Origin: an uncultured Bacillota bacterium
GTDB taxonomy: Bacteria > Bacillota > Clostridia > Oscillospirales > Oscillospiraceae
Reading direction: 5' to 3'
Length of the DNA: 64,000 bases
Assembly: GCA_947649625.1 (NCBI GenBank)
Contig: CANSSJ010000003.1
Coordinates: 2,055-66,054 of the forward strand
Within the stretch, counting starts at the first letter, position 1. Every line of letters starts with the position of its first letter. The position numbers were made by a program, and so were the translations under genes. This document shows positions 14,089-61,657 of this stretch, piece after piece. A model generated the notes under the pieces. That model had not been told where the DNA came from, made no database searches, and saw nothing but the letters and a program-made list of their open reading frames with translations.

Positions 14089-14213
14089 GTAGGGCGGGAC
14101 GACTCGGCCCGCCGTCTTATTTGATCGCGGGGCACCGAGGTCGTCGCCCCCTACAGGATCGCAATGTAGGGGCGGATATCATCCGCCCGCGGGCGCATAA
14201 TATGCGCCCCTAC
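14089..14213. repeat. Two tandem inverted pairs of GTAG-tagged REP palindromes (14089-14154, 14166-14213)
   Basis: GTAGGGCGGGACGACTCGGCCCGCC...GTCGTCGCCCCCTAC and GTAGGGGCGGATATCATCCGCCCG-CGGGCGCATAATATGCGCCCCTAC. Confidence 0.85.
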
Positions 14214-15337
14214 ACGGGTTTGCCCTTAAACACAATGGCCTTGATGGACAGGTCCTGCTCGTCCAGCAGGACGGCGCTGGCCTCCTTGCCGACGTCCAGG
14301 GTGCCCACCCGGTCCTCGATGCCGATGGACTTGGCCGGGTTATAGGTGCAGGCCCGCACCGCGTCGGCCACAGGGATACCGAAGGACACCGCCTGACGCA
14401 GGCAGCCCATCAGGCTGGTGACCGACCCGGCCAGTGTCTCCGGATGGCCCAGGATGGTAGCCCGGTTTCCGTGGACCTCGATCATCTGGCCGCCGAAGGG
14501 GTACTCGCCGTCTGGCATTCCGGTGGCCCGGAGGGAGTCGGAAATAATGATCATCCGCTCCTTCCCGAACAGCCCGAAGGTGAGGCGGACCACTGCCGGG
14601 TGGATGTGGATGCCGTCGCAGATCAGCTCGGGCATGACGGCGGGGACCTCCCAGGCCGCGCCGATGACGCCCGGGTCCCGGTGGGCCAGGGGGGGCATGG
14701 CATTATAGAGGTGGGTGGCGTGGTCCGCCCCCGCCTCAAAGGCGGCCCTAGCGGTGTCGTAATTGGCGACGGTGTGGCCCACCGAGACGTGGATACCCAT
14801 TTCCTTCGCAGCCTTGATAAACTCCACGGAGCCCGGCTGCTCGGGGGCCAGGGTGACCAGACGGACACAGCCCTCCGCCGCCTCCTGGAGGCGCTTCAGC
14901 ATAGCGGCGTCCGGGTCGTGGAGGTAGTCGCCGTTCTGGGCGCCCTTCTTGGCCATGCACAGGAAGGGGCCTTCCAGGTGGGCACCCACCACCTCCGCGC
15001 CCCCGGCGTTTTTCTTCCGGTGGGCGGCGGTGGTCTTGCAGATGGCGGTGAGCTGGTCCTCGGGGAGGGTCATGCCGGCGGGGCAGATATAGGTAACTCC
15101 CTGAGACAGCTCATAGTCGGCGATTTTTTGTAGGCCGTCGGGGGTGGCGTCGGAAAAGTCCTCCCCCACGCAGCCGTGGAAGTGGACGTCCACCAGCCCG
15201 GGAATGACGTAGCAGCCCTTGGCGTCCAGGACTTCTCCGTCCCCGCTGCTCTCAGAGATCAGCGCGCCGTCGGTGAACACATCCCGGCCGACAAAGCCCT
15301 GTTCCAGGTCGAAGACCTGTCCGTTGGTAATTCTCAT
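14210..15337 (-). CDS. nagA: N-acetylglucosamine-6-phosphate deacetylase
   Basis: PGLVDVHFHG, HLEGPF, THLYNAM, DGIHIHP, LAGS. Confidence 0.95.
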   Translation of the reverse strand: MRITNGQVFDLEQGFVGRDVFTDGALISESSGDGEVLDAKGCYVIPGLVDVHFHGCVGEDFSDATPDGLQKIADYELSQGVTYICPAGMTLPEDQLTAICKTTAAHRKKNAGGAEVVGAHLEGPFLCMAKKGAQNGDYLHDPDAAMLKRLQEAAEGCVRLVTLAPEQPGSVEFIKAAKEMGIHVSVGHTVANYDTARAAFEAGADHATHLYNAMPPLAHRDPGVIGAAWEVPAVMPELICDGIHIHPAVVRLTFGLFGKERMIIISDSLRATGMPDGEYPFGGQMIEVHGNRATILGHPETLAGSVTSLMGCLRQAVSFGIPVADAVRACTYNPAKSIGIEDRVGTLDVGKEASAVLLDEQDLSIKAIVFKGKPV

Positions 15338-16080
15338 GCCTGGAACCCGGCGGCGGCCAGCTTGCTGAAAGCGGCCTCGTCAACGACCACGACCACGTCG
15401 GGGTGGAGCTGGAGGATGGAGCCGGGGCACTCGGGAGTGATAGGCCCGCAGACAGAGCGGCAGATGGCGTCGGCCTTCTCCTCGCCGCTGGCGCACAGCA
15501 GCACCTTCTTGGCCCCCATGATGGCCTCCATGCCCATACTGATGGCCTGCCTGGGCACGTCGTCCCGGCTGGCGAAGAAGCGGGCGTTGGCGTCGATGGT
15601 GCTCTCGGCCAGGTCCACCACGTGGGTTTCCTTCACGAAGCAGTCCCCCGGCTCGTTGAAGCCGATGTGGCCGTTACGGCCGATGCCCAGCAGCTGCAGG
15701 TCCACATAGCCCTGGCTGCGGATATAGGCGTCGTACTCGTCGCAGAAGGCCTTGGGGTCCTTAGTCAGCCCATCGGGCACCCGGGTGTGCTCAGGGCTAA
15801 TATCCACATGGTCGAACAGATTGCTCTGCATGAAGTAACGGTAGCTCTGGTCGTGGTCGGGGGCCAGACCCACATACTCGTCCAGGTTGACACTGAGAAC
15901 ATCCTTGAAACTGAGCAGCCCCTGCTTATACCAGTCCACCAGATAGCGGTAGGCCCCCTCGGGGGTGGAGCCGGTGGCCAAACCCAGCAGGCAGGCGGGA
16001 TTATGGGTGACCTCTGCGGCGATGATCTGGGCCGCGCGGCGGCTCATGGCCTCATAGTCTTTCTCACGATAGATTCTCAT
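15334..16080 (-). CDS. nagB: Glucosamine-6-phosphate deaminase
   Basis: LGLATGSTP, NLDEYVGL, LLGIGRNGHIGFNEP. Confidence 0.96.
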   Translation of the reverse strand: MRIYREKDYEAMSRRAAQIIAAEVTHNPACLLGLATGSTPEGAYRYLVDWYKQGLLSFKDVLSVNLDEYVGLAPDHDQSYRYFMQSNLFDHVDISPEHTRVPDGLTKDPKAFCDEYDAYIRSQGYVDLQLLGIGRNGHIGFNEPGDCFVKETHVVDLAESTIDANARFFASRDDVPRQAISMGMEAIMGAKKVLLCASGEEKADAICRSVCGPITPECPGSILQLHPDVVVVVDEAAFSKLAAAGFQA

Positions 16081-16279
16081 AACGCATTACTCCTTCTCAA
16101 AAATATTGAGGTAACCGCTTTGCTATCATCATACCACGCCTCGCGGGACAAGTCCAGTCATATCTTCAAAAAATTCCGATATTTTCATTGTGTTTTTGTC
16201 CACTTTATAGTATAATCATCCGTAACAAAAAATCACTCCGTCCGGCGGAACACGCCGGCCGGAATCAAGGGGAGAAATT

Positions 16280-17611
16280 ATGAGTAAAGACAACAAAAAA
16301 CACCGGTTTTCCAGCGGCTGGGGCTTTGTCCTCTCGGCGGTGGGCTCGGCGGTGGGCATGGCCAACGTGTGGGGCTTTCCCGCCAAGATGGGCAGCAACG
16401 GCGGCGGGGCCTTCCTGCTGGCCTACCTGTTTTTCATTATGCTCTTCGGCACGGTGGGCCTGTCCGCCGAGTATGCCGTGGGCCGCCGGGCCCACACCGG
16501 CACCCTGGGCTCCTATGAGATGGCCTGGGCCAACCGGAAGCCCGCACTGGGAAAGGCGGGCGGGATCGTGGGCTGGCTGCCCCTGGCCGGCTCCATGTGT
16601 ATCGCCCTGGGCTACGCCGTCATCATCGCCTACGTGCTCAAGGCCTTCGCCGCCTCGGTGGGCGGGTCGCTGATGACGGTGGACCCCGGCCCCTGGTTTG
16701 AGTCCTTCTCCCTCCACGACTACTCAGTGGTCCCCTTCCATGTGATCGTGGTGGTGGGCACCCTGCTCACCCTCCTGCTGGGAGCCAGGAGCATTGAGAA
16801 GTCCAACAAGGTGATGATGCCGCTGTTTTTCATCATCTTCCTCATTCTGGCCGTCCGGGTGGCCCTCCTGCCCGGAGCCATTGAGGGTTATAAATATATG
16901 TTCACCCCTCGGTGGAAAGACCTCCTCAACCCCATGGTATGGATCTGGGCTATGGGACAGGCTTTTTTCTCCCTGTCCATCACGGGCAGCGGCATGATTG
17001 TCTACGGGGCCTACCTGTCCCCGGAGGAGGACGTGGTGTCCCTGGCCAAGCAGACCGCCCTCTTTGACACCATCGCCGCCCTGGTGGCCGCCCTGGTGAT
17101 TATCCCCGCCTGCTTCGCCTACGGACTGGACGTGGGGTCCGGGCCTTCCCTGCTCTTTGTCACCCTGCCCCATATCTTGCAGGATATCCCCCTGGGGCGG
17201 CTCTTTGCTGTGATCCTGTACACCGCCATGGTGTTCGCCGGGGTGAGCTCTCTGCAAAACATGTTCGAGGCGGTGGGCGAGTCCCTCCTCCACCGCTTCC
17301 CCAGACTGAACCGGAAGGTGATGCTGGCCATTCTGTGCGTCATCTGCCTGGGTATCGGCCTGAACATGGAGCCCATCTTTAAATGGGGGCCCTGGATGGA
17401 TATTGTTTCCATTTATATCATCCCCATCGGTGCCACCCTGGGGGCCGTGTCCTGGTTCTGGATCATGAAGCGGGACGCGCTGATGGACGAGATCGGCCGG
17501 GGCGCGAAAAAGCCCGCCGGCCAGCTGTGGTACAACGTGGGCCGGTATCTCTACGTCCCCTGCGCCATCATCCTGTGCTGTGTGGCCCTGTTCCTCAAAG
17601 TAGCGTTTTAA
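16280..17611 (+). CDS. Sodium-dependent transporter, neurotransmitter:sodium symporter family
   Basis: GSAVGMANVWGFP, GGGAFL, GQAFFSLS. Confidence 0.92.
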   Translation: MSKDNKKHRFSSGWGFVLSAVGSAVGMANVWGFPAKMGSNGGGAFLLAYLFFIMLFGTVGLSAEYAVGRRAHTGTLGSYEMAWANRKPALGKAGGIVGWLPLAGSMCIALGYAVIIAYVLKAFAASVGGSLMTVDPGPWFESFSLHDYSVVPFHVIVVVGTLLTLLLGARSIEKSNKVMMPLFFIIFLILAVRVALLPGAIEGYKYMFTPRWKDLLNPMVWIWAMGQAFFSLSITGSGMIVYGAYLSPEEDVVSLAKQTALFDTIAALVAALVIIPACFAYGLDVGSGPSLLFVTLPHILQDIPLGRLFAVILYTAMVFAGVSSLQNMFEAVGESLLHRFPRLNRKVMLAILCVICLGIGLNMEPIFKWGPWMDIVSIYIIPIGATLGAVSWFWIMKRDALMDEIGRGAKKPAGQLWYNVGRYLYVPCAIILCCVALFLKVAF

Positions 17612-17626
17612 GACGGGAGGCAGTCA

Positions 17627-18493
17627 ATGACATTTGAGCTGAAAAAAGGCGGTCTGCGAGGCATAGCCCGGACGAAAGGCGGGGAGCTGGTCTCCCTGAG
17701 AGACGGGGAGGGCCGGGAGTATATCTGGGAGGGGAACCCGGCCTTCTGGTCGGGGCAGAACCCCATCCTCTTCCCCATCGTGGGCTCTCTGAAAGACGGA
17801 AAGGTGGACATCGGTGGAACGATCTATGCGATGGGCCGCCACGGCTTCGCCCGGGGGGCGGAGTTCGCCCCTGTGGAACAGGGGGAGGGCTTCGTCACCC
17901 TGGAGCTGCGGGAAAATGAGGAGACTCTAAAGTGCTATCCCTTCCCCTTCTCCCTCAAAGTGACCCACCGGCTGCTGGAGGACGGCTTTTCCACCACTTT
18001 CTCCGTAACCAACACCGGAACCGCCCCCATGCCCTTCTGCGTGGGCGGGCACACCGCCATTCGGGTCCCCGATGGGGAGCGCTTCGAGGACTACGAGCTG
18101 GTATTCGACGTGCTGGAACAGGCGGACAGCCACCTGCTCAACAGCCAGGGCATCATCCGCCACGACGGCCGGAAGCCCATGCTGGACGGGAACCGAATCG
18201 CCCTGGACTACGACACCTTCGCCCAGCTGGACACCATCATTTTCAGTATGCTCCGCTCCGGGAATGTGTCCCTGGTTCACCGGGAGACGGGGAAAGGGGT
18301 ACGGCTGGACTTCCACGAGTTCCCCATGGTGGCCTTCTGGACCAAGCCGGGGGCACCCTTCCTGTGCCTGGAGCCCTGGCAGGGCTGCGCCGCCTGGGAC
18401 AACGAGACCGGAAAATTTGAGGATAAGCCCTTCTGCACCGTCCTCCAGCCGGGAAGTGAAAAAAGTATCTCCTGCGCCTTCTATATCCAGTAA
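17627..18493 (+). CDS. Aldose 1-epimerase family protein (LacX-like)
   Basis: YIWEG...W.GQNPILFPIVG, RHGFAR, GGHTA, LCLEPW. Confidence 0.88.
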   Translation: MTFELKKGGLRGIARTKGGELVSLRDGEGREYIWEGNPAFWSGQNPILFPIVGSLKDGKVDIGGTIYAMGRHGFARGAEFAPVEQGEGFVTLELRENEETLKCYPFPFSLKVTHRLLEDGFSTTFSVTNTGTAPMPFCVGGHTAIRVPDGERFEDYELVFDVLEQADSHLLNSQGIIRHDGRKPMLDGNRIALDYDTFAQLDTIIFSMLRSGNVSLVHRETGKGVRLDFHEFPMVAFWTKPGAPFLCLEPWQGCAAWDNETGKFEDKPFCTVLQPGSEKSISCAFYIQ

Positions 18494-18604
18494 CCTTGCG
18501 GCCCTCCCCGGCGGGGAGGGCCCATTCTTTTCTCTTGCCAAACCTGTCCCGACGGCGTATAATGGGGAAAACCCGGCGGACAAGCCCATTGGAGGGAGCT
18601 TTTT

Positions 18605-19363
18605 ATGGTTTTCATTTCCTGGAACGTCAACGGCCTGCGGGCCTGCTTGAAAAAGGGATTCACTGACTTCTATCAGGCCTACGCGCCCGACTTCCTCTGC
18701 CTCCAGGAGACCAAGATGGAACAGGGCCAGGCGGACGTCCCCCTGGGGGACGGTGTGCTGGAGTACTGGAACTCGGCGGAGAAGAAGGGCTACTCCGGCA
18801 CCGCGGTCTTCACTCCCCACGCCCCCATCGACACCGCCTACGGCATGGACATCGACATGCACGACCACGAGGGGCGGCTCATCACCCTGGAGTATGAGAA
18901 GTTCTATCTGGTGTGCTGCTACACCCCCAACGCCCAGGACGGCCTGAAACGGCTGGACTACCGGATGGAATGGGAGGATGACCTGCGGGAGTATCTCATG
19001 TCGCTGGACAGGACCAAGCCGGTGATCTACTGCGGCGACCTGAACGTGGCCCATGAGGAGATCGACCTGAAAAACCCGAAGGCGAACCGGGGAAACGCCG
19101 GCTTCTCCGACCAGGAGCGGGAGAAAATGACCGCCCTGCTCTCCTCTGGGTTTACCGACACCTTCCGGCACCTTTACCCGGACGTGACCGGGGCCTACTC
19201 CTGGTGGTCCTACCGCTTCAACGCCCGAAAGAACAACGCAGGGTGGCGTATCGACTACTTCATCGTCTCCGACCGCCTGCGAGACAAGATTCTCCGGGCG
19301 GAGATCCTCTCCGACATAGAGGGCAGCGATCATTGTCCGGTTCTATTGGAATTGGATATTTAA
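18605..19363 (+). CDS. xth: Exodeoxyribonuclease III / AP endonuclease
   Basis: SWNVNGLRA, LQETK, GDLNVAH, WRIDYF, SDHCP; promoter TTGCCA-N17-TATAAT at 18535-18563. Confidence 0.95.
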   Translation: MVFISWNVNGLRACLKKGFTDFYQAYAPDFLCLQETKMEQGQADVPLGDGVLEYWNSAEKKGYSGTAVFTPHAPIDTAYGMDIDMHDHEGRLITLEYEKFYLVCCYTPNAQDGLKRLDYRMEWEDDLREYLMSLDRTKPVIYCGDLNVAHEEIDLKNPKANRGNAGFSDQEREKMTALLSSGFTDTFRHLYPDVTGAYSWWSYRFNARKNNAGWRIDYFIVSDRLRDKILRAEILSDIEGSDHCPVLLELDI

Positions 19364-19388
19364 CAGATAACAGAAAGAAGAGATCGTG

Positions 19389-21073: not shown

Positions 21074-21078
21074 GCGCC

Positions 21079-22876: not shown

Positions 22877-23095
22877 ATGAAAAAAACCTTCAAGCTCATC
22901 GACCTGGACTGCGCCAACTGTGCCGCCAAAATGGAGACTGCCATCAAAAAGATCGACGGGGTAGTGGACGCCACCGTGTCCTTTATGACTCAGAAAATGA
23001 CCGTGGAGGCCGACGACGCCCGGTTCGACGCCATCATGAAGCAGGTGGTCAAGGCCTGCAAAAAGGTGGAGCCGGACTGCGAGATCGTGCTGTGA
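22877..23095 (+). CDS. Stand-alone heavy-metal-associated (HMA) domain protein
   Basis: DLDCANCAAK motif, 72 aa. Confidence 0.88.
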   Translation: MKKTFKLIDLDCANCAAKMETAIKKIDGVVDATVSFMTQKMTVEADDARFDAIMKQVVKACKKVEPDCEIVL

Positions 23096-23706
23096 GCACC
23101 TTCTGGGACCGCTGGGCCCGATTCTACGACCTGGCGGAGCGGAGCAACCGAACAGTAAACCAGGCCGCCGCGTCCCGGGTGGGGTCGCTGGTCCCCGCCG
23201 GGGCCAAAGTGCTGGACTGCGCCGCCGGGACGGGTGAATTTTCTCTGGCGGCGGCGGAAAAAGCCGCTTCGGTGCTGTGTACCGACCAGTCCCCGGAAAT
23301 GCTGAAACAGGCCCAAAAGAAGACAAAAAAGCGGGGTCTGGACAATATCAGCTTTGCCCGGCGGGATATTACCGCCCTGTCCGACCCGGACGGCAGCTTC
23401 GACGTGGTGATTGCCGCCAATGTGCTGCACCTGCTCCCCGAACCGGAGAAGGCGGTGCGGGAGCTGTGGCGGGTGGCCGCCCCTGGGGGGCGGCTCATCC
23501 TGCCCACCTACCTCCAGGGCCGGGCGGGGACGGCCTACGGGGCCATGATTAAGATTTATCAGGGCGTGGGCTTCCACTATGAGCACGCCTTCACCCCGGA
23601 GACCTACCGGATGTCCCTGGAGCGCCTGGATTTGGCCCCGGTGGCGCTGGAGGTCATCCCGGGTGGGGTGCCCGAGGGTATCGCCGTGCTAAAGAAACCT
23701 CTGTAG
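23092..23706 (+). CDS. Class I SAM-dependent methyltransferase
   Basis: VLDCAAGTG, FDVVIAANVLH, PGGRL; GTGA overlap with the HMA gene. Confidence 0.88.
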   Translation: MSTFWDRWARFYDLAERSNRTVNQAAASRVGSLVPAGAKVLDCAAGTGEFSLAAAEKAASVLCTDQSPEMLKQAQKKTKKRGLDNISFARRDITALSDPDGSFDVVIAANVLHLLPEPEKAVRELWRVAAPGGRLILPTYLQGRAGTAYGAMIKIYQGVGFHYEHAFTPETYRMSLERLDLAPVALEVIPGGVPEGIAVLKKPL

Positions 23707-23773
23707 GGGCGGTCTGTGGCCGCCCGTGAACAGGTAACCGAATCTTGGACGGGCGGCCACAGGCCGCCCCTAC
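23703..23773. repeat. Inverted pair of GTAG REPs
   Basis: GTAGGGGCGGTCTGTGGCCGCCCG ... CGGGCGGCCACAGGCCGCCCCTAC. Confidence 0.88.
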
Positions 23774-25643: not shown

Positions 25644-25671
25644 AACCGCCTCCCCGGCCGGGGAGGCGGTT
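25644..25671. terminator. Bidirectional terminator
   Basis: AACCGCCTCCCC-ggcc-GGGGAGGCGGTT between convergent genes. Confidence 0.8.
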
Positions 25672-27822: not shown

Positions 27823-27871
27823 TTGACAACCACACCAAAAGAGTGTATATTGGATACACCCTTTTAGTGTG
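27823..27871. promoter_or_regulatory. Promoter TTGACA-N17-TATATT overlapped by twin ACAC-N7-GTGT operators forming an 18-bp inverted repeat
   Basis: CACACCAAAAGAGTGTAT-attgg-ATACACCCTTTTAGTGTG (2 mismatches). Confidence 0.7.
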
Positions 27872-27881: not shown

Positions 27882-28106
27882 ATGGACAAACAACTCAAAG
27901 AATTCTTCTTCGACGAAGTAGAGCGTGCGCATTTGAATTTCGAGGCATTCCCGGAATACAACGACCTGATGGATCGGAGCCTGTCCCTGTTTCCCAACGG
28001 AGACCTGCCCAAGCCGCTCTTTGATCTGCTGGAGACCGCCAACTGCATCTCCTTCGCCCACGGGCTCAAATTGGGGCTGCGGCTGCGGGAGTGGGCGGCT
28101 TTGTAG
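27882..28106 (+). CDS. Small hypothetical protein, 74 aa (DUF6809-like C-terminus)
   Basis: RBS GGTGA; C-terminal SFAHGLKLGLRL helix; divergent from the XRE gene. Confidence 0.6.
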   Translation: MDKQLKEFFFDEVERAHLNFEAFPEYNDLMDRSLSLFPNGDLPKPLFDLLETANCISFAHGLKLGLRLREWAAL

Positions 28107-28207
28107 GGGCGCGCAGTGCGCGCCCGCGGGCGGACAATACCCGCAAGGGGTACGCCGCATCCGTAAGGCGGCAAAGCCGCCAACGGCTGCGCAGTGTCCG
28201 CCCCTAC
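28103..28207. repeat. Inverted GTAG REP pair with a ~55-bp hairpin element inserted in the right-hand REP loop
   Basis: GTAGGGGCGCGCAGTGCGCGCCCG then CGGGCGGACA[insert]CAGTGTCCGCCCCTAC. Confidence 0.8.
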
Positions 28208-29505
28208 ACCCCCAGCCTGTCCAGCGCCTCCAGGGCGCGTTTGGAAATCTCGGCGTTTTTGTTCCGCTTGCCCTTCACCCGGTAGCCCAGGGGCGGGATC
28301 AGGCCGAAATTGATGTTCATCGGTTGAAAGTTTACCACACTTTGGTCGCTGATGTAAAGGACCAATGCGCCCATAGCGGTCTCCTGGGGGAAATTAACAG
28401 GGGATTTCCCCTCCAGCCGCCGGGCCAGCTCCACCGCGGCCAGGCACCCGGAGGCGGTGGACTCCACATAGCCCTCCACCCCGGTGATCTGCCCGGCGAA
28501 CATCAGCCGCTCGTTCCCCCGCACCCGGTAGTACCGGTCCAGCAGCCGGGGGGAGTCCAGGAAGGTGTTCCGGTGCATCACCCCATAGCGGACGTACTCG
28601 GCGTTTTTCAGGGCGGGGATCATGGAAAACACCCGCTTCTGCTCCGGGAATTTCAGGTGGGTCTGGAAGCCCACCATATTGTAGATGGACCCCTGGGCGT
28701 TGTCCTTGCGCAGCTGGACCACGGCGAAGGGCTCCCGCCCCGTCCTGGGGTCCTTGAGCCCCACCGGCTTCAGGGGCCCATAGCACAGGGTATCCCGCCC
28801 TCGGCGGGCCATCACCTCAACAGGCATACAGCCCTCAAAGACCCCCGCGTCCTCAAAGCCGTGGACCTCCGCCTCCTGGGCGGTGGTCAGTTCCCGCCAG
28901 AAGGCGTCGTACTCCTCCGCCGTCAGGGGGCAGTTGATGTAGTCCGGCGTGCCCCGGTCGTACCGGGAGGCGAACCAGGCGCTGTCCATGTCGACGCTGT
29001 CGAAGGTGACCAGCGGAGCGGCGGCGTCGAAGAAGTTGAGATATTTGCTGTCGGGGAACAGCGCCCCGATCTTCTCCGACAGGGCCTCAGAGGTCAGGGG
29101 GCCGGTGGCAATGATGACGTTCCCCTCCGCCGGGATCTCGGTGACCTCCCCCTCCGCGACGGTGATGTTGGGGTGGGTTTTTATTTTTTCGGTGATGGCG
29201 GCGGCAAAGGCGTGGCGGTCCACCGCCAGTGCGCCCCCCGCCTCCACCCGATGGGCGTCGGCACAGGCCATGATGAGGGAATTACACCGGCGCAGCTCCT
29301 CCTTGAGGAGGCCCACCGCGTTCTCCAGCTGGTCGGACCGCAGGGAGTTGGAGCACACCAGCTCCCCGAAATACTCCGTGTGGTGGGCGGGGGACATCTT
29401 CGCGGGCTTCATCTCCCGCAGTTCCACGGGAATCCCCCGCCGGGCCAGCTGCCAGGCCGCCTCGCTCCCCGCCAGCCCCGCGCCGATGACGGTTACTTTG
29501 TCCAT
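28204..29505 (-). CDS. trmFO: FAD/folate-dependent tRNA m5U54 methyltransferase
   Basis: VIGAGLAGSEAA, ELVCSNS, YGPLKPVGL, YGVMHRN, AGQITGVEGY. Confidence 0.96.
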   Translation of the reverse strand: MDKVTVIGAGLAGSEAAWQLARRGIPVELREMKPAKMSPAHHTEYFGELVCSNSLRSDQLENAVGLLKEELRRCNSLIMACADAHRVEAGGALAVDRHAFAAAITEKIKTHPNITVAEGEVTEIPAEGNVIIATGPLTSEALSEKIGALFPDSKYLNFFDAAAPLVTFDSVDMDSAWFASRYDRGTPDYINCPLTAEEYDAFWRELTTAQEAEVHGFEDAGVFEGCMPVEVMARRGRDTLCYGPLKPVGLKDPRTGREPFAVVQLRKDNAQGSIYNMVGFQTHLKFPEQKRVFSMIPALKNAEYVRYGVMHRNTFLDSPRLLDRYYRVRGNERLMFAGQITGVEGYVESTASGCLAAVELARRLEGKSPVNFPQETAMGALVLYISDQSVVNFQPMNINFGLIPPLGYRVKGKRNKNAEISKRALEALDRLGV

Positions 29506-29517: not shown

Positions 29518-29593
29518 GTAAGGGCCGCCGCCCTCGGCGGCCCGATTCTCATATTTAGCACCGTTACGGGGCGGCGAGGGCGCCGCCCCCTAC
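29518..29593. repeat. Inverted REP pair (GTAA and GTAG variants) between topA and trmFO
   Basis: GTAAGGGCCGCCGCCCTCGGCGGCCCG ... CGGGGCGGCGAGGGCGCCGCCCCCTAC. Confidence 0.75.
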
Positions 29594-29594
29594 A

Positions 29595-31886
29595 TTACGT
29601 CTTCTTGGCAGTCGTCGCTTTCTTGGTGGCTGCTTTTTTTGTTGTGGTCTTTTTGGCGGCGGACTTTTTTGCTGCGGGCTTCTTGGCAGCGGTTTTCTTG
29701 GGCTTCTCCGCCGGTTCGGCGGGGGCGGACTCCTTCTTCTTCCATCCGCCCCGCTTGTCCTCGGGGGTGAAGTTGGCACACTTCTCGTTGACGCAGAAGG
29801 GCTTCTTGGCCCCCCGGCCCGACTTTTTGAACATGGTCTGACCGCAGACGGGACAGTTATCCTTTACGGGCACGTCGAAGGTGACAAACTCGCACCGCTG
29901 ACCCTCGTCCTTGCTGCTCCGGCGCTCACAGCAGTAGTAGGTGTACTGCTTGCCTGTCTTCTTGCTCTTTCCGGTGCGCTTGAACAGCCGCCCGCCGCAC
30001 AGGGGGCACTTGCCCGGCATCTCCACCACCAGGGGCATGGTGAAGTCGCACTCCGGCCAGCCGGGGCAGGCTAGGAACCGGCCAAACCGGCCCGACTTGA
30101 TGACCAGATTCCGCCCGCACTGAGGACAGATCTCCTCAGAAACCTCGTCGGGCACCTTGATCCGGGCCCCGTCCAGTTCCTGCTCCGCTTTTTTCAGTTC
30201 GGCGTCGAAATTCTTGTAGAAGTCGGCAAGAAGGGCCTTCCAGTCGGCAGTTCCCTCTTCCACCTTATCCAGCCGCTGCTCCATCTGGGCGGTAAAGTCG
30301 TAGTCCACGATATCGTGGAACTTATCCTTCATCAGGCCGGTGACCACCTCCCCCAGCGGGGTGGGGCGCAGGGCCTTGCCCCCCTCCTTTACCACGTATT
30401 CCCGGTTCAGGATGGTGGTAATGGTGGGGGCGTAGGTGGAGGGCCGGCCAATACCCTGCTCCTCCAGGGCCCGGATGAGGCTGGCCTCAGAGTAGCGGGC
30501 GGGGGGCTGGGTAAAGTGCTGGTCTCTGGTAAGTTTCTTGTGGGTGAGGATCTCCCCCTCCTTCAGGTCGGGCAGGGGAGAGGACTTTTTCTCCTCCTCT
30601 TCCTCGTCCCTCCCCTCCTCATAGACGGCGGTGAAGCCGGAGAATTTCAGGGAGGAGTGGCTGGCCCGGAAGATATATCCGGAGTTTTCCACGTCGATGG
30701 ACAGGCTGTCGTAGACGGCGTTGGCCATCTGGCAGGCCAGAAACCGGGACCAAATCAGCCTGTACAGCCGGAACTGCTCGGCGGTCAGGTCCTTCTTGAT
30801 GTCCTCGGGGACCAGGGTAACGTCGGAGGGGCGGATGGCCTCGTGGGCATCCTGGGCGTTCCCCTTGGTCTTGAATCTTCGGGGCTGGGCGGGGCAGTAG
30901 GCTCCGCCATACCGCTGGCTGATAAAACCCCGGGCCGCGGCCACCGCCTCGTCGGACAGGCGCAGGGAGTCGGTACGCATATAGGTGATGAGGCCCACGG
31001 CCCCCTGGCCGGCAACGTCGATACCCTCATAGAGCTGCTGGGCCACCGCCATAGTGCGGGCGGGGGACATGTTCAGCTTGCGGCTGGCCTCCTGCTGGAG
31101 AGTCGAGGTGGTAAAGGGAGGAGCCGGCTGGCGGCTTTTCTCCTGCCGCTTCACCTTGGCCACCGACCAGCTCCCTTGGGAGACGGCGGCGATCACGTCC
31201 TCCGCCTCCTGCTGGCTGTGGAGCTCCATTTTCCTGTCCCGGCCGTGGAACTGGGCCTTGAAGGCGCCTGTATGGGGGCTTACCCGCTCCAGGTCGGCCT
31301 CGATGGACCAGTACTCCTGGGGGACAAAGGCCCGGATCTCCAGCTCCCGCTCCACCACAAGGCGGGTGGCGACAGACTGTACCCGGCCGGCGGACAGCCC
31401 CTGGCGGATCTTCTTCCACAGCAGAGGGGAGAGCTGGTAGCCCACGATCCGGTCCAGGATGCGCCGGGCCTGCTGGGCGTCCACCAGATTCTGGTCGATG
31501 GCCCGGGGGGCGGCGATGGACTGATTGACCACATTTTTGGTGATCTCGTTGAAGGTCACCCGGTAGGTCTTGTCGTCCGGGATGTTGAGCAGCTCCTTCA
31601 GATGCCAGGAGATGGCCTCCCCCTCCCGGTCAGGGTCGGTGGCCAGATAGACCTTGTCGGAGCGTTTGGCCGCCTTTTTCAGGTCGCTGATGACATCCTC
31701 TTTGCCCTTGATGGGCTGGTAGTCGGGGACGAAGCCGTGCTCGATGTCCACGCTCAGTTTGCTCTTGGGCAGGTCCCGGACATGTCCCATGGACGCCTTC
31801 ACCTCATACCCCGGTCCCAGGTACTTGCCGATGGTCTTGGCCTTGGACGGGGACTCTACGATCACTAAGTCAGTCTTATTTGCCAC
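29595..31886 (-). CDS. topA: DNA topoisomerase I with three Zn ribbons and a Lys/Ala-rich tail
   Basis: VESPSKAK, ATDPDREGE, GRVQS, ITYMRTDS; GTG start. Confidence 0.97.
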   Translation of the reverse strand: MANKTDLVIVESPSKAKTIGKYLGPGYEVKASMGHVRDLPKSKLSVDIEHGFVPDYQPIKGKEDVISDLKKAAKRSDKVYLATDPDREGEAISWHLKELLNIPDDKTYRVTFNEITKNVVNQSIAAPRAIDQNLVDAQQARRILDRIVGYQLSPLLWKKIRQGLSAGRVQSVATRLVVERELEIRAFVPQEYWSIEADLERVSPHTGAFKAQFHGRDRKMELHSQQEAEDVIAAVSQGSWSVAKVKRQEKSRQPAPPFTTSTLQQEASRKLNMSPARTMAVAQQLYEGIDVAGQGAVGLITYMRTDSLRLSDEAVAAARGFISQRYGGAYCPAQPRRFKTKGNAQDAHEAIRPSDVTLVPEDIKKDLTAEQFRLYRLIWSRFLACQMANAVYDSLSIDVENSGYIFRASHSSLKFSGFTAVYEEGRDEEEEEKKSSPLPDLKEGEILTHKKLTRDQHFTQPPARYSEASLIRALEEQGIGRPSTYAPTITTILNREYVVKEGGKALRPTPLGEVVTGLMKDKFHDIVDYDFTAQMEQRLDKVEEGTADWKALLADFYKNFDAELKKAEQELDGARIKVPDEVSEEICPQCGRNLVIKSGRFGRFLACPGWPECDFTMPLVVEMPGKCPLCGGRLFKRTGKSKKTGKQYTYYCCERRSSKDEGQRCEFVTFDVPVKDNCPVCGQTMFKKSGRGAKKPFCVNEKCANFTPEDKRGGWKKKESAPAEPAEKPKKTAAKKPAAKKSAAKKTTTKKAATKKATTAKKT

Positions 31887-55554: not shown

Positions 55555-55570
55555 GCGTCGAGGTGATTGT

Positions 55571-55756: not shown

Positions 55757-55789
55757 AAAATTTCCCGCCCTGTGGGCGGGAAATTTTTT
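55755..55789. terminator. Bidirectional terminator
   Basis: AAAAATTTCCCGCCC-tgt-GGGCGGGAAATTTTT. Confidence 0.85.
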
Positions 55790-56366
55790 ATCCCCAGCCG
55801 CCGGTAAAGGCGGGCTGGCAGTCGGTGTCCTGGACCACAAAAATCTCATAGAGATGGGACAGGGCGTCCCAGGTGGCGGTGTCCATACAGCCTGTCTGGG
55901 GCAGGCCCGCCGCCTTTTGCAGCCAGCGGATGTTGTCGGCTGAGGCGGGGCCGTTACAGCCGTCGGCAGGGCAGGGGGTGACCCCCTCAAACTGACCGGC
56001 CAGTATATTGAACATGGTCTGTGGGACGATCAGGTACTCCTTGGTCTCCCCCTCATGGACCTGGATACCCTCTGAGGGAAAGATGCGGGTGGCCCGGGAG
56101 TAGCCGGTCCTGGGCCGCTGGGCCAGCCAGCAGTTCCGGATGGCTTCCCAGGTGGCCTGGTCCACCGTTCCGGTGACGGGCAGGCCCGCCTCCCGCTGGA
56201 AGCACATCACCGCCTCCAGGGTCCGTTCACCAAACACGCCGTCCACCGCCACCTGGGGCAGGAATTTATAGGTTTTGGATAGCTGACGCAGCATATATTG
56301 AAGACTCATAACCGGGTTGGCTACCATCTCCCGCTCCAGCAGCTCCCGGTTCAAATCAAAATTCAT
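55788..56366 (-). CDS. Peptidoglycan-binding domain protein (two PG_binding_1-like units)
   Basis: VDGVFGERTLEAV..FQREAGLPVTGTVDQATW; WLQKAAGLPQTG.MD.ATW. Confidence 0.85.
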   Translation of the reverse strand: MNFDLNRELLEREMVANPVMSLQYMLRQLSKTYKFLPQVAVDGVFGERTLEAVMCFQREAGLPVTGTVDQATWEAIRNCWLAQRPRTGYSRATRIFPSEGIQVHEGETKEYLIVPQTMFNILAGQFEGVTPCPADGCNGPASADNIRWLQKAAGLPQTGCMDTATWDALSHLYEIFVVQDTDCQPAFTGGWG

Positions 56367-57619
56367 ACCTCCACTCCTCTCCGTCTGCCTTTTGGGCCGT
56401 CTCTCTGGCCCGGCCTCATGGGGCTGCCCTGGTACTGGCCCAGCCGGGGGGTGGCGGCCCAGCGGTCCGGGCCCTGCTCCGGAAGCGCCTGCCCCATCAC
56501 GGGAACGGCATCCTCCCCCAGGGACTGGGCCCGCACCGTATCCCGGCGGAACTGATAATCCGCCGTCACAAAGCTGTCATAGATCGAGTTCCAGGTGCGC
56601 TCCTCCACCACCCCGTCGGGGGTGAGGCCCGCCCACACCTGATAGGTGCGCACCGCCCGGTCGGTGACCGGGCCGAAGTCGCCGTCAATGGCGGGGGCCT
56701 GCAGCGTGTCGGAAAACTGGGCCAGCATGGAGAGCATATATTGCAGCACCTCCACCTCCGGCCCGGAGTCCCCCTGGGCCAGCACCCCGGGGAACTGGAA
56801 CTGGAAGGCGTAGAAGGTCTGCCCCTGGCTCACCAGCTCGGCCAGCTGCCGCACCCCCACATAGAGGTATACCAGCTTATACCAGGTGGCCTTGCCCACG
56901 ATGCCGTCCTGGGCCAGGCTGAAGATGCGCTGGAAGGTGCGCACGGCGGACTCGGTCTCCGCTCCGAAGGCGCCGGTGGCCGGCACCTTGGGGATGGCGG
57001 GGTAGTTTTGGGAGATACGGTTCAGCATGGCCTGCACCACCGATACCTCCGGCCCCGCCGACCCCAGGCGCAGCGGAGTCCCGGGATAGGAGGTAATCAG
57101 GTCCTGAATGGGGGCGTCCACCACCAGCTCGATGTCGTCCCCGTAGTAGTAGCGGAGGATCTCCATGGAGTTCAGGCCGTCCTGGGCCAGCTCCTGGCTG
57201 CCCCACTGGGACAGGCCGTCGCAGGTGGAGGTAGTGCCGTTGCAGAACTTGGCGGCCAGGGGCTCCACAAAGCCCTGGCGGCGGATATAGTCGTTGAAGA
57301 TCTCGTCCACCAGCTGGCTGATATTTTCAAAGATGTTCCGTCCCGGAATAAATTTCTGGTCGTACTGGGTGGTGGAGGTGATCTGAAAGTCGTAGCCCTG
57401 ACTGGGGTAGAACTCGGTGTACACCCGGTTCAGGGCGAAGGAGATGATGGCCAGCACGTTGGCCCGGATGGCGGCGGGCTCCCAGGTGGGGTAAATCTCG
57501 CTGGAGGCCACGTTCTTCACGTAGTCGGGAAAGGTGACCGTCACATTTTCCGCCCACTGGCTGGGCAGGCCCAGATGCACGGTGATGGTGCGGGGGACAT
57601 ATGGAATGATAACTGGCAT
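56363..57619 (-). CDS. sleC: Spore cortex-lytic enzyme SleC-like (SpoIID/LytB domain plus two PG-binding domains), no pro-region
   Basis: ITVHLG, YVKNVASSEIYPTW, NRVYTEFY, FCNGTTSTCDGLSQWGS. Confidence 0.85.
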   Translation of the reverse strand: MPVIIPYVPRTITVHLGLPSQWAENVTVTFPDYVKNVASSEIYPTWEPAAIRANVLAIISFALNRVYTEFYPSQGYDFQITSTTQYDQKFIPGRNIFENISQLVDEIFNDYIRRQGFVEPLAAKFCNGTTSTCDGLSQWGSQELAQDGLNSMEILRYYYGDDIELVVDAPIQDLITSYPGTPLRLGSAGPEVSVVQAMLNRISQNYPAIPKVPATGAFGAETESAVRTFQRIFSLAQDGIVGKATWYKLVYLYVGVRQLAELVSQGQTFYAFQFQFPGVLAQGDSGPEVEVLQYMLSMLAQFSDTLQAPAIDGDFGPVTDRAVRTYQVWAGLTPDGVVEERTWNSIYDSFVTADYQFRRDTVRAQSLGEDAVPVMGQALPEQGPDRWAATPRLGQYQGSPMRPGQRDGPKGRRRGVEV

Positions 57620-57629
57620 GGCGCTCCCC

Positions 57630-58031
57630 TCACAGGTTCTGGGCTGGGATATCCCGCTCGTCCCGCTGCTGCAGGCTGCAAAGCCCCTGAGGCAGAGGGA
57701 TCAGCTCCATATCCTGCATGGTCTCCACCCCGGGGAAAATCTGCACGCCGTTTACCCGGAGCATGGCGTAGCCCGGCTGTTCGGCCCACACGTCGCACAG
57801 GGCGAAGGGCAGGCCGGGACCGGGCAGGCCGCCGGGAGAGGTGCTCTCCGCCGGGACGGGGGCGTCGATGGTCACCGGGCGAATCAGCCCGCTGCTGTCG
57901 GTGTTCTGTATGGAGAGCAGCTTCCACTTGCCCTCCTCCCCCGGCGCGGCCACCACCACCGTGGCTCCCTCCAGGGGAATCTGCGCCCGGGAGGTGAACA
58001 CCCGGACACTTAAGGTTCCTGTTGCTTGCAT
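57630..58031 (-). CDS. SleC pro-region-like beta-sandwich protein encoded as a separate gene
   Basis: GTLSVRV..S..IPLEGATV, TDSSG, NGVQIFPG. Confidence 0.65.
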   Translation of the reverse strand: MQATGTLSVRVFTSRAQIPLEGATVVVAAPGEEGKWKLLSIQNTDSSGLIRPVTIDAPVPAESTSPGGLPGPGLPFALCDVWAEQPGYAMLRVNGVQIFPGVETMQDMELIPLPQGLCSLQQRDERDIPAQNL

Positions 58032-58082
58032 AGTTAAAGTACCTCCTGCGGCAGACTCCTCCGGGAGTCTGCCGTCCGCTCT

Positions 58083-58109
58083 ATCCTATGCGGGGCAGGT
58101 CTTCCCCGT
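58083..58109 (-). promoter_or_regulatory. sigmaK-like promoter AC-N17-CATAGGAT of the sleC locus
   Basis: Consensus match; 11-bp hairpin (58049-58074) just before the RBS. Confidence 0.5.
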
Positions 58110-58177
58110 CCCCCTTGCAATCCCTGCACATTTATAGTACAATAAAGCGATATTGGCAAAAGAAGGTGAGCGTATCC

Positions 58178-59554
58178 ATGAGCATGACGGCCGTGAAGTC
58201 GGTGGAGCCCCGCAGTCCCGCCCGCCGGGCAGGGGTCCGGGCGGGGGATACCCTTACCCACATCAACGGCCATCCAATCGTGGACGTGCTGGACTACAAA
58301 TTTTACAGCTACGACCCCCGGCTGGAACTGACTCTGCGCGCGGCGGACGGGACATCCCGCACCCTGCGCGTCCGGAAGTCCGAGGGGGAGGATCTGGGGC
58401 TGGAATTTGAGACCTACCTGATGGATCGGGCCCGGTCCTGCGCCAACCGGTGCATCTTCTGCTTTGTGGATCAGATGCCCCCCGGGATGCGGCCCTCCCT
58501 CTACTTCAAGGACGACGACGCCCGGCTCAGCTTCCTGCTGGGCAACTACCTCACCCTGACCAACCTCTCCCCCCGGGAGGTGCAGCGGATCATCGACCTG
58601 CGCATCTCCCCCATCAATATCTCCGTCCACACCACCGACCGGGCGCTGCGGGCCGAGATGCTGAAAAATCCCCGGGCCGGGGAGGGCATCGACATCATGG
58701 AGCGGTTCGCTCAAAACCGCATCACCATGAACTGCCAGATCGTCTCCTGCCCCGGCGTCAACGACGGTCCAGCCCTGGACAAAACCCTGAACGACCTGGC
58801 TGCGATGTTTCCCTCTGTCAACAGTGTATCGGTGGTGCCGGTGGGGGTGACCAAATACCGGGAGGGGCTGTATCCCCTCAAAACCTATACCCAGGAGACC
58901 GCCTCCGCCCTCATCGACCAGGTGGAGGCTTTCGCCGCCCGGCATTTGGAGGAGCATGGAACAAGGCTGGTCTGGTGCTCCGACGAGTTCTATCTGCTGG
59001 CCGGCCGGGAGCTGCCCGGCGAGGACTATTTTGAGGACTTCACCCAGCTGGACAACGGGGTAGGGATGCTCACCCTCCTGATGAAGGAGTTCGGCCGGGC
59101 CCTGGACCTGATGGAGCCCGGGGATCTGGCGGGAGCCGTCCCCTTCTCCATTGCCACCGGCGTTTCCGCCGCCCCGTTTTTGGCAAAATTGGTGGGACAG
59201 GCCCGTGAAAAATGTGGTACAATAGAGGGTAAGGTCTATGCCATTGTCAACCGCTTCTTCGGGGAGACCATCACCGTGGCCGGGCTGGTCACCGGGGGCG
59301 ACCTGATCGACCAGCTCCGGGGGAAGGAGCTGGGACAGCGCCTGCTCATCCCCGCCTCCATGCTCCGGTCGGGGGAAAACGTCTTTCTGGACGACGTGAC
59401 CACCGATGACGTGGAGCGGGAGCTGGGCGTGCCCGTGGTCCCCGTCCCCCAGGACGGCTACGAGCTGCTGGACGCCATCTGTGGCATTGCGCTCACCCCC
59501 GAGACCCAGCGCCTAGCCTGGGAGAATGAGGAATTTTACCGGTATAATCCGTAA
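58178..59554 (+). CDS. PDZ + radical SAM + DUF512 protein
   Basis: CANRCIFC, YFKDDDARLSF, QLDNGVG; promoter TTGCAA-N17-TACAAT at 58115-58143. Confidence 0.88.
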   Translation: MSMTAVKSVEPRSPARRAGVRAGDTLTHINGHPIVDVLDYKFYSYDPRLELTLRAADGTSRTLRVRKSEGEDLGLEFETYLMDRARSCANRCIFCFVDQMPPGMRPSLYFKDDDARLSFLLGNYLTLTNLSPREVQRIIDLRISPINISVHTTDRALRAEMLKNPRAGEGIDIMERFAQNRITMNCQIVSCPGVNDGPALDKTLNDLAAMFPSVNSVSVVPVGVTKYREGLYPLKTYTQETASALIDQVEAFAARHLEEHGTRLVWCSDEFYLLAGRELPGEDYFEDFTQLDNGVGMLTLLMKEFGRALDLMEPGDLAGAVPFSIATGVSAAPFLAKLVGQAREKCGTIEGKVYAIVNRFFGETITVAGLVTGGDLIDQLRGKELGQRLLIPASMLRSGENVFLDDVTTDDVERELGVPVVPVPQDGYELLDAICGIALTPETQRLAWENEEFYRYNP

Positions 59555-59568
59555 AGGAAGTGAGACCT

Positions 59569-60894
59569 ATGAAACCCTTAGTCGCCATTGTGGGCCGGCC
59601 CAACGTGGGCAAGTCCATGCTGTTCAACAAGCTGTGCGGGCAGCGGCTGTCCATTGTTGAGGACACCCCCGGCGTCACCCGGGACCGGCTGTACGCCCAG
59701 TGTGAGTGGCGCAACCGGGTCTTCGACATCGTGGACACCGGCGGCATCGAGCCGGGCACCGACGACCAAATTTTGTCCTTTATGCGGGAGCAGGCGGAAA
59801 TCGCCATTGGGACCGCTACCGTGATTGTCTTTGTCTGCGACATCAAAACGGGCGTGACCGCCTCCGACCAGGAGGTGGCCAACATGCTGCTGCGCTCCGG
59901 CAAGCCGGTGGTGCTGGCGGTGAACAAGGCCGACCAGACCGGCCGGGAGAACCCGGACATCTACGAGTTCTACAACCTGGGTCTGGGGGACCCCATCGCC
60001 GTCTCCGCCGTCCACGGCCACGGCACCGGCGACCTCCTCGATGCCTGCTTTGAGTACTTCCCCCCCGAAGACGAGGAGGAAGAGGAAGACGACGTCATCA
60101 AGGTGGCCGTCATCGGCAAGCCCAACGTGGGCAAGTCCTCCCTGGTAAACCGGATTCTGGGGGAGGAGCGGGTCATCGTCTCCAACGTGGCCGGCACCAC
60201 CCGGGACGCGGTGGACAGCTTCTTCGAGAACGACAAGGGCAAGTTCCTGTTCATCGACACCGCCGGGATGCGGAAGAAGTCCAAGGTGGACGACCGCATT
60301 GAGAAGTTCTCCGTCCTCCGGGCCACCATGGCCATTGAGCGCAGCGACGTGTGCCTCATCATGATTGACGCCCAGGAGGGGGTCACGGAACAGGACACGA
60401 AAGTGGCCGGGCTGGCCCACGAGGCGGGCAAGGCCTGCATCATCGTGGTCAACAAGTGGGACGCCATCGAGAAGGACGGCAAGACCATGGATAAAATGCG
60501 TCAGGACGTGATGCGGGACCTGTCCTACATGACCTACGCCCCCATTGTGTTCATCTCCGCCCTCACGGGCCAGCGGGTGGACCGGCTGTTTGAGCTCATC
60601 AACTACGTGAACAACCAGGCCGCCATGCGGATTACCACCGGGATGCTCAACTCCCTGCTGGCCGACGCCACCGCCAGGGTCCAGCCCCCCACCGACAAGG
60701 GCCGGCGGCTGAAGGTCTACTATATGACCCAGGTGGGGGTCAAGCCCCCCCACTTCGTCTGCTTCTGCAACGACGCCCGGCTGTTCCACTTCTCCTACCA
60801 GCGGTATCTTGAGAACCAGATCCGCTCCACCTTCGGCCTGGAGGGCACCCCCGTCCGCCTCACCGTCCGGGAGCGGGGCGAGAAGGAGGGGTAG
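59569..60894 (+). CDS. der: Ribosome biogenesis GTPase Der/EngA
   Basis: Two GTPase domains GRPNVGKS and GKPNVGKS; DTGG, DTAG. Confidence 0.97.
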   Translation: MKPLVAIVGRPNVGKSMLFNKLCGQRLSIVEDTPGVTRDRLYAQCEWRNRVFDIVDTGGIEPGTDDQILSFMREQAEIAIGTATVIVFVCDIKTGVTASDQEVANMLLRSGKPVVLAVNKADQTGRENPDIYEFYNLGLGDPIAVSAVHGHGTGDLLDACFEYFPPEDEEEEEDDVIKVAVIGKPNVGKSSLVNRILGEERVIVSNVAGTTRDAVDSFFENDKGKFLFIDTAGMRKKSKVDDRIEKFSVLRATMAIERSDVCLIMIDAQEGVTEQDTKVAGLAHEAGKACIIVVNKWDAIEKDGKTMDKMRQDVMRDLSYMTYAPIVFISALTGQRVDRLFELINYVNNQAAMRITTGMLNSLLADATARVQPPTDKGRRLKVYYMTQVGVKPPHFVCFCNDARLFHFSYQRYLENQIRSTFGLEGTPVRLTVRERGEKEG

Positions 60895-60896
60895 AT

Positions 60897-61595
60897 ATGT
60901 ATGATAAGCTGACAGAGCTTTTTCGTCCCGTTTATGCCTTTATCATGGCGGTCAGCGCGGCGTATCTTCTCTGGATTATGGCGTTGATCGCCGTTCCCGC
61001 CTACCTTCTGGGCTGTTTCAACGGAGCGGTGATCGTCTCCAAATATATCCTCCGGGACGACATCCGCACCCACGGCAGCGGAAACGCCGGGCTGACCAAC
61101 TTCTACCGCACCTTTGGCGGGCCCTTGACGCTGGGCGTCATCCTGTGCGATGTAATTAAGGCGGTCCTGTCCATTCTGATCGGCGTGCTGATTGTCTCTA
61201 TGACCATTGGCAGCAATGGGATGTACGGCGCATACGCAAAATACTGGGCCGGCCTGTGGTGCCTGCTGGGCCATATGTTCCCCTGCATGTTCCACTTCAA
61301 GGGCGGCAAGGGGATTCTGTCCGGCGGGACCATCGCCATCATGATCGACTGGCGGATCGCCCTCGTCGTCTGGGGCGGGTTTATCCTGCTGGCGGTGTTG
61401 ACCCGGTACGTCTCCCTGGGTTCCTGCTGGGCGGGGGCGTCCTTCCCCTTCGCCACCTGGTTTGTCTACCAGGACGTGATTCTCCTGGTCTTGTCCATCG
61501 TCATCGGCGGGCTCATCCTCTACATGCACCGGGGGAATATTAAACGGCTGTTGACCGGGACGGAGAGTAAATTTAGCCTGCATAAGAAGGCGTAG
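60897..61595 (+). CDS. plsY: Glycerol-3-phosphate acyltransferase
   Basis: HGSGNAGLTN, GHMFP, FKGGKG, HRGNI. Confidence 0.94.
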   Translation: MYDKLTELFRPVYAFIMAVSAAYLLWIMALIAVPAYLLGCFNGAVIVSKYILRDDIRTHGSGNAGLTNFYRTFGGPLTLGVILCDVIKAVLSILIGVLIVSMTIGSNGMYGAYAKYWAGLWCLLGHMFPCMFHFKGGKGILSGGTIAIMIDWRIALVVWGGFILLAVLTRYVSLGSCWAGASFPFATWFVYQDVILLVLSIVIGGLILYMHRGNIKRLLTGTESKFSLHKKA

Positions 61596-61657
61596 GGGCG
61601 CACATTGTGCGCCCGCATAGTCTGTCTTTATTTCGGGCGCACAATGTGCGCCCCTAC
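61592..61657. repeat. Perfect inverted pair of 24-bp GTAG REPs
   Basis: GTAGGGGCGCACATTGTGCGCCCG ... CGGGCGCACAATGTGCGCCCCTAC. Confidence 0.9.

Follow-up and report, generated by a model that had tools for sequence, protein, structure and literature searches.

Why do genes of a gut bacterium end in the tag of a repeat? The question is raised by a 64,000-nt stretch of DNA from an uncultured Bacillota bacterium of the Oscillospiraceae (assembly GCA_947649625.1, contig CANSSJ010000003.1, here C3, positions 2055–66054; hereafter the window), in which G+C-rich inverted repeats bearing a GTAG tag lie at gene ends and the TAG of the tag doubles as the stop codon of five genes. An initial annotation, made from the letters of the window, had ascribed these repeats to a system of repetitive extragenic palindromes (REPs) mobilized by REP-associated tyrosine transposases (RAYTs). 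Work on REP/RAYT systems has, to our knowledge, dealt almost exclusively with Proteobacteria. The analysis reported here points the same way as the annotation: the repeats are very probably GT[AG]G-tagged REPs spread by RAYTs, with the element's own TAG replacing the stops of genes. The assembly from which the window derives comprises 2.24 Mb in 137 contigs (61% G+C, 94.6% complete) and, judging by the names of its nearest relatives, belongs with the Lawsonibacter / Colidextribacter / Flavonifractor group.

Three REP families and two RAYT genes

The sequence GTAGGGGCG occurs eight times in the window against 0.78 copies expected, a number reached by none of 100 shuffles, and 102 times across the genome. 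Scanning the genome for GTAG with an adjoining hairpin, followed by sorting under strict criteria, yielded 191 strict units in three families (~190–220 units overall). Family A (70 strict units) follows the pattern GTAG-GGGCGnnn-nnn-nnnCGCCC-G, an 8-bp stem closed by a 3-nt loop; family B (77 units) reads GTAGGGCG[CGT]GACGACC(Y)CGGC...GCC; and family C (44 units) reads GTAGGGGCCGCCG-CCCT-CGGCGGCCC, with a 9-bp stem and a 4-nt loop, and is set apart from one family B variant by just two positions. GTAG was counted 73 times as the tag in family A, 69 times in B and 19 times in C, and GTGG 16 times in B and twice in C; the base preceding the tag is T in 64–87% of units. As the initial annotation had noted, the stems diverge in sequence and still pair: across 20 distinct family A variants, 160/160 cells were paired, with compensatory changes on both sides at four of the eight stem pairs and none broken. 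Tens of identical copies are scattered over unrelated loci. Like the GTAG-tagged REP superfamily, these repeats combine a GT[AG]G tag directly abutting a G+C-rich palindrome with a high copy number, a mostly extragenic location and frequent inverted dimers.

Most units occur in pairs. We found 67 head-out doublets (GTAG...CTAC), which contain 131 of the 191 units and in 63 cases join units of the same family. Family A spacers measure either 0–2 nt or 18–26 nt, clustering at 22–24 nt, and three units carry a double foot (G000:C14:38449–38475, C17:24086–24112 and C17:35933–35962). Folded as RNA, doublets of same-type arms form one long helix that includes the UAG (–54 to –63 kcal/mol, z ~ –10.5).

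The great majority of REP-bearing intergenic regions (87%) lie between co-directional genes, and no REP excess was seen in convergent regions. REPs lack a T-tail or U-tract; none of the 36 terminator-like sites called between positions 13900 and 30000 coincides with a REP, and the same scan does find genuine T-run terminators nearby, e.g. at 25644–25671. A role as intrinsic (Rho-independent) terminators was thus rejected, there being neither T-tails nor a convergent excess.

Most REPs scored as lying inside a gene proved to be artefacts of over-long start calls. Nevertheless, a few open reading frames (ORFs) do translate REPs in frame. For instance, a 1,227-aa ORF (G000:C2:42220–45900) reads through a whole family A doublet (CRGGLWPP-DTGAEDQK-RAATGRPY), a 941-aa ORF (G000:C6:41592–44414) includes a family C unit near its C-terminus (VGAAALGGPS), and a 497-aa ORF (G000:C1:49784–51274) has the REP-coded tail CRGGHCPPAGA*.

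In line with the initial annotation, the window is devoid of RAYT genes. A genome search with PF01797, however, found two on other contigs: one of 175 aa on the plus strand (G000:C24:5619–6146, equivalent to L003:1501–2028) and one of 194 aa on the minus strand (G000:C55:1677–2261, L001), which share 31% identity. The best-matching families of both are NF047646 ("REP-associated tyrosine transposase") and PF01797. A profile built from 12 RAYT relatives matched one PDB structure only, E. coli TnpA_REP (4ER8; E = 1.3e-8), in an alignment that brings both the HUH motif and the YIxxNP tyrosine into register. The two proteins carry PNHIH and PDHVH, WQ, and YIDTNP and YIQNNP, and the tyrosine of (E)YIxxNP is invariant in the 12 sequences; they thus display the HUH motif and the catalytic tyrosine of a Y1 fold akin to TnpA_REP.

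Each RAYT ORF also holds an inverted pair of its own REP type, in frame and flanking the HUH motif. In the C24 gene the embedded arms belong to family A and encode CRGAHCAPA and GRAMRAPT; in the C55 gene they are family B-like and encode VGPDHLGGPS and PPRWSGPT, with a third REP copy directly upstream of the start. This arrangement is widespread. Of 92 RAYT loci inspected, drawn from relatives and from named Clostridia such as Clostridium argentinense and Geosporobacter ferrireducens, 72 yielded a parsed ORF, and in 69 of these the gene contains a GTAG...CTAC pair; in 67 of these 69 the pair lies within the ORF at a distance of 173–220 nt, its arms identical at 18–26 of 26 positions (mostly at least 22). 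The embedded stems vary among RAYT lineages, and translation passes through the left REP in either of two frames, which argues that the constraint acts on DNA. By their motifs, the in-frame embedded REPs and the double-foot REPs, the two RAYTs appear to fit TnpA_REP subclass 2.4.

Comparison of 41 related genomes, with the reversed family A pattern as control, revealed family A copy numbers from 0 to 245 within the same genus (control, 0–1). Of the 14 genomes with 20 or more family A copies, 12 have RAYT relatives, the two exceptions being 58% and 80% complete; of the 17 genomes with zero copies, none has. Family A abundance thus tracks RAYT presence among the 41 genomes and, together with the REP type embedded in each RAYT gene, associates the enzymes with cognate repeats. 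The family A pattern is present in two further families of the order as well. With two genomic RAYTs and co-occurrence of enzyme and repeat, the proposal of a RAYT-type REP system in a Firmicute is well borne out.

Gene stops supplied by REPs

Six inverted doublets had been listed in the window and all six are present, with GTAG tags in general; the exception is 29518–29593, whose left tag is GTAA. That the TAG of GTAG ends five genes was confirmed from the ORF table and NCBIfam. nagA (14210–15337, minus strand) stops at the right-hand tag (14210–14212, minus strand) of a family A doublet at 14166–14213, whose arms abut, with stems GGATATCATCC and GCATATTATGC (RNA fold –37.5 kcal/mol, z = –6.0). 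The gene for a class I S-adenosylmethionine (SAM) methyltransferase (23092–23706) stops at the tag (TAG, 23704–23706) of a family A doublet at 23703–23773, with GGCC-type stems and a 22-nt spacer (–63 kcal/mol, z = –10.5); the terminator scan does not call this site. plsY (60897–61595) ends in the TAG (61593–61595) of the family A doublet at 61592–61657, located between plsY and gpsA, with GCACATTGTGC stems and a 20-nt spacer (–54.2 kcal/mol, z = –10.5, the UAG paired within the helix). The remaining two genes share a composite family A doublet at 28103–28207, whose arms abut and whose right-arm loop carries a foreign insert of ~52–57 nt (~28139–28193). Its left TAG (28104–28106) stops a 74-aa ORF (27882–28106) without a family match in NCBIfam, and its right TAG (28204–28206, minus strand) stops trmFO (28204–29505, minus strand).

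More generally, we asked how often a tag supplies a stop. Genes were called across the genome with a simple codon-bias caller written for this analysis (1,991 genes; TGA 865, TAA 789, TAG 240). A called gene stops at the tag's TAG in 26 of the 191 units, so that REPs account for 26 of 240 (~11%) TAG stops; likewise, 26 (25%) of the 106 genes ending in G-TAG, out of ~1,900, bear a REP. Among the 86 units whose outer side points toward a gene 3′ end, 24 have the offset –3, which makes the tag's TAG the stop; offsets –2 to +1 are unoccupied, and no other offset has more than six. The excess at –3 holds with two or three in-frame positions pooled (P = 2e-9 to 3e-6, at a local density of 2.6 per position). 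The overlap that the initial annotation had seen at five genes is thus enriched genome-wide.

Orthologs in REP-free relatives indicate where these stops came from. Without a REP, most orthologs of trmFO, plsY, nagA, leuC and larC have TAA or TGA as their stop, and the TAG was found to have come with the REP. The REP-borne TAG occupies the same codon as the orthologous stop in plsY, nagA and leuC and lies within one codon of it in trmFO. In REP-free relatives plsY and gpsA are separated by 13–21 nt and PlsY ends in ...HKKK*, with TAA or TGA as stop. At least four REP types are represented at this junction among the eight relatives that have a REP there; in seven of the eight, plsY stops at the REP TAG in the same codon position, and with a REP the terminal K is replaced by A, T, S or G (encoded by NCG or GGG). 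nagA orthologs without a REP stop at the same codon position with TAA or TAG. The trmFO tail, ...KLDL[SE]* with TGA, TAA or TAG in REP-free relatives, becomes ...LGV* or ...DLGV* with a REP, and larC shows the same REP-TAG pattern in five REP-bearing species. The suggestion that REPs could rewrite C-termini therefore holds for some genes, in which the last residue or residues are altered. At one set of orthologous sites (L125–L127), doublets in three species have identical arms and diverged spacers, pointing to constraint on the arms or their homogenization.

The five stops involve none of the other elements listed in the window. A family B doublet at 14089–14154, close to the nagA repeat, joins arms of different subtypes (left arm GTAGGGCGGGACGACTCGGCCCGCC; right arm, as reverse complement, GTAGGGGGCGACGACCTCGGTGCCCC). 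In the family C doublet at 29518–29593, the left tag has decayed to GTAA and the right arm, read on the minus strand, is GTAGGGGGCGGCGCCCTCGCCGCCCC. Since its arms are unlike, the doublet forms two hairpins rather than one, and its end at 29593 falls 1 nt before the topA stop codon (29595–29597). A GTGG singlet had also been counted as a member of the repeat, namely the G+C-rich hairpin at 7059–7085 (plus strand), 6 nt past the stop of the ORF at 5749–7053. It was rejected, as it is unique in the genome (no other copy within two mismatches) and its fold reaches a z of –2.7 only.

Several side observations concern the same loci. A near-consensus promoter-like site (TTGACA-17-TATATT, 27823–27851) lies directly upstream of the REP-terminated 74-aa ORF. 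The module nested in the REP loop at 28139–28193 (CCCGCAAGGGGTACGCCGCATCCGTAAGGCGGCAAAGCCGCCAACGGCTGCGCAG) is made of small hairpins. blastn found the same composite again at G000:C74 (7066–7144), and a further copy of the module sits in a different hairpin context at G000:C65:883–942; it looks like a second small element housed in hairpin loops. Among relatives, the same gene ends carry different REP families depending on the species (L125–L130, L140 and L142 for plsY–gpsA; L187–L194 for leuC; L216–L223 for larC). One of the families found there, GTAGGGACGCTTCACGAAGCGTCC, is absent from this genome, and in some relatives the tag reads ATAG, with the TAG stop retained. Another modular repeat, AAAAGCCTCCC...GGGAGG followed by further small hairpins, is found 3′ of the same genes in relatives (L137–L139, L146, L155, L164, L166, L185, L191 and L192, all intergenic) and may be related to the module at 28139–28193.

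Competing explanations and possible consequences

One alternative to replacement of stops by the element's own TAG is that the GTAG was there first. The hairpin would insert 3′ of a pre-existing GTAG, as IS608 does 3′ of TTAC. Gene ends in G-TAG could then be hit without harm, and this would account for the overlap as well as for the use of the same sites by several families. Consistent with this, the tag is common to all families, one quarter of the genes ending in G-TAG bear a REP, different families colonize the same gene ends, and some REP-free orthologs do end in G-TAG (trmFO in L098, L099 and L103, nagA in L156, larC in L222). Yet in a hand count only ~7 of ~88 orthologous ends without a REP were G-TAG, a share close to that in the genome at large (106 in ~1,900), and most ends were TAA or TGA. 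Because REP-free ends are so rarely G-TAG, the TAG usually arrives with the REP. A single pre-existing target also leaves unexplained why doublets bear tags on both outer sides. We therefore rejected the pre-existing landing pad, which strikes us as improbable.

The overlap might otherwise combine a counting effect with chance, in that many in-frame insertion positions collapse into one class. This follows from the logic by which ORFs are defined; moreover, the remaining two reading frames through a REP lack a stop, and the gene ends come from a crude caller. However, the REP stop lies at the orthologous codon in plsY, nagA and leuC and within one codon in trmFO, so that few positions are actually pooled, and the excess at –3 withstands the pooling of two or three. 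As a full account of the overlap, we judge counting and chance distinctly improbable.

That the repeats are ordinary host RNA elements (terminators or 3′ stabilizers), vertically inherited, selected and non-mobile, would suit their position downstream of genes, their very stable folds and the arms conserved at L125–L127 despite diverged spacers, but is scarcely credible given the missing U-tracts and terminator calls, the prevalence of tandem over convergent regions, the tens of identical copies at unrelated loci, a copy number that ranges in a single genus from 0 to 245 and is linked to the presence of a RAYT, the in-frame copies inside genes, and the finding that the hairpins are not fixed at the same sites across the genus as ordinary terminators would be.

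The interpretation of the repeats as RAYT-spread REPs that bring their own stop codon has to face several points that weigh against it. The peak at –3 is partly an accounting effect, since any insertion that falls in frame ahead of the old stop counts as an overlap, and the gene ends rest on the crude caller. In silico excision of GTAG...CTAC from 16 stop-overlapping doublets restored no nearby in-frame stop, so that the insertion boundaries are not defined by excision. When the excision keeps "GT", T+A[AG] appears in 10 of 16 cases, against ~8 predicted from flank composition (T at –1, base mix at –2), and no target site or duplication could be inferred from these 16 doublets. Furthermore, the 57 spacers of at least 12 nt among the 67 doublets show no similarity beyond shuffled controls, overlap artefacts aside. 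The spacers being unrelated, the doublets do not descend as copies from a master element, and a master origin of the spacers was rejected. The label REPIN used in the initial annotation, taken strictly as a doublet copied as one unit, therefore does not apply, the more so as arms in families B and C differ systematically: they are never identical and less alike than random pairs (B: 0/25 doublets identical), whereas family A arms within a doublet are more alike than under random pairing (P = 0.0005). As regards the enzymes, the NF047646 scores (63.6 and 69.7 bits) both fall under the curated equivalog cut-off of 80 bits, and the PF01797 scores (17.6 and 24.0 bits) fall under and over the cut-off of 23 bits, respectively; on these scores, both RAYTs are distant members of the family. 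No third RAYT that might serve family C was found by tblastn with both RAYTs in this 94.6% complete assembly. Finally, REP gains and losses at orthologous sites were seen between species only, and it is on these that a description of the system as active would have to draw.

By analogy with E. coli TnpA_REP, whose family has been characterized biochemically (4ER8, PMC3479197, PMC8266576), a RAYT would recognize the hairpin and its GTAG foot on single-stranded DNA and cut and rejoin there, which could drive the spread and turnover of REPs. A REP would land at a gene end or about one codon inside it, with its G as the third base of the last sense codon; its TAG would then replace the old TAA or TGA, and one or two terminal residues would change in some genes. 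Where co-transcribed genes lie as little as 13–21 nt apart, the stop codon may be nearly the only place that tolerates a 50–70-nt insert. Insertions overlapping the stop would thus survive because few other sites are tolerated and because the element carries an in-frame stop, possibly aided by an insertion bias. At the RNA level, a hairpin starting at the UAG, which in same-type doublets is buried in a helix of 24–26 bp, may delay termination, influence the coupling of the following gene or shield the 3′ end. In E. coli, REPs within ~15 nt of a stop reportedly stall ribosomes and lower expression, as described by Liang, Rudd and Deutscher in 2015; by analogy, the same would be the natural expectation here.

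A bolder extension, which we consider rather unlikely, is that insertion is biased to the stop codon itself, beyond what selection accounts for. Different REP families would then dock repeatedly, each independently and in succession, at the stops of housekeeping genes such as plsY, leuC, trmFO and larC, and the hairpin starting at the UAG could be a tunable brake on termination and on translational coupling to the gene that follows. Were this so, REP turnover would be a source of heritable expression variation within operons.

Several implications follow for the handling of such genomes. Because ORFs read through REPs in two of the three frames, the starts and ends of REP-bearing ORFs are easily miscalled. 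For metagenome-assembled genomes, hundreds of near-identical palindromes of 24–70 nt have to be reckoned with during assembly, and for operons, REPs may affect how expression evolves. The existing understanding of REP function is left unchanged by our findings.

Comparison with known systems

With insertion sequences of the IS200/IS605 family (IS608, ISDra2), the present system shares a Y1 HUH enzyme, here presumed to act on single-stranded hairpins, and a tetranucleotide at the hairpin foot. In contrast to these elements, the RAYT is not mobile together with its repeats, and there is no sign here of a left-end/right-end architecture or of insertion 3′ of a fixed target. Pseudomonas REPINs, which according to work by Bertels and Rainey in 2011 reportedly replicate as a unit with a recognizable shared spacer, resemble our repeats in forming inverted doublets that can fold into one long hairpin and in being accompanied by a single-copy RAYT. 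Here, however, the spacers are unrelated and the arms match only in family A.

E. coli REPs and the bacterial interspersed mosaic elements (BIMEs) that they build likewise combine GTAG with a hairpin, and the structure 4ER8 of the associated TnpA_REP (YafM/RayT; PMC3479197) is the only solved relative of our RAYTs. The Y/Z pairs of unlike inverted REPs in BIMEs are reminiscent of families B and C, whereas conserved linker motifs between the arms are missing here. Moreover, the REPs lie within the RAYT gene rather than flanking it, and the stems are shorter and without a bulge.

Another close system is TnpA_REP subclass 2.4 (Bertels group 4). According to Quentin, Siguier, Chandler et al. (2018), this subclass is characterized by the motifs NH[IFV]H, WQ and YIxNNP, by "double foot" REPs and by in-frame REPs inside tnpA_REP (PMC6006769). 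The motifs, a length of ~175–194 aa, long and double-foot GT[AG]G...C[TC]AC REPs and in-frame REPs within the gene all recur in our data. The subclass is described mainly from Cyanobacteria and Bacteroidetes, whereas ours are Clostridia, likened to it by motifs rather than by a tree; insertions are said to lie "generally between HuH and Y" (PMC6006769), while here an inverted pair straddles HUH, with one arm ahead of it and the other behind. Bertels et al. (2017) tied only groups 2 and 3 to abundant repeats and group 4 to modest repeat numbers only (PMC5581495), compared with the ~200 units of the present genome. A literature search combining RAYT and Firmicutes returned unrelated word matches only.

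The GTAG superfamily surveyed by Di Nocera, De Gregorio and Rocco (2013) shares with our repeats an unpaired GTAG foot adjoining a G+C-rich palindrome, many inverted dimers downstream of ORFs and some copies within ORFs; its termini, too, often supply the TAG stop of flanking ORFs (PMC3733652). The main text of that survey (PMC3733652) does not mention Firmicutes or Clostridia, whereas three families co-reside in the Oscillospiraceae genome described here, and stop overlap is now quantified and compared among species. TAG stops derived from GTAG REPs (Di Nocera 2013) and REPs within subclass 2.4 tnpA_REP genes (Quentin 2018) are thus both already published. What is added here is a rich three-family system in Oscillospiraceae, abundant members of the gut community, together with numbers for the overlap of REPs with stops and the repeated colonization of gene ends, including the same ends of essential genes, by different REP families.

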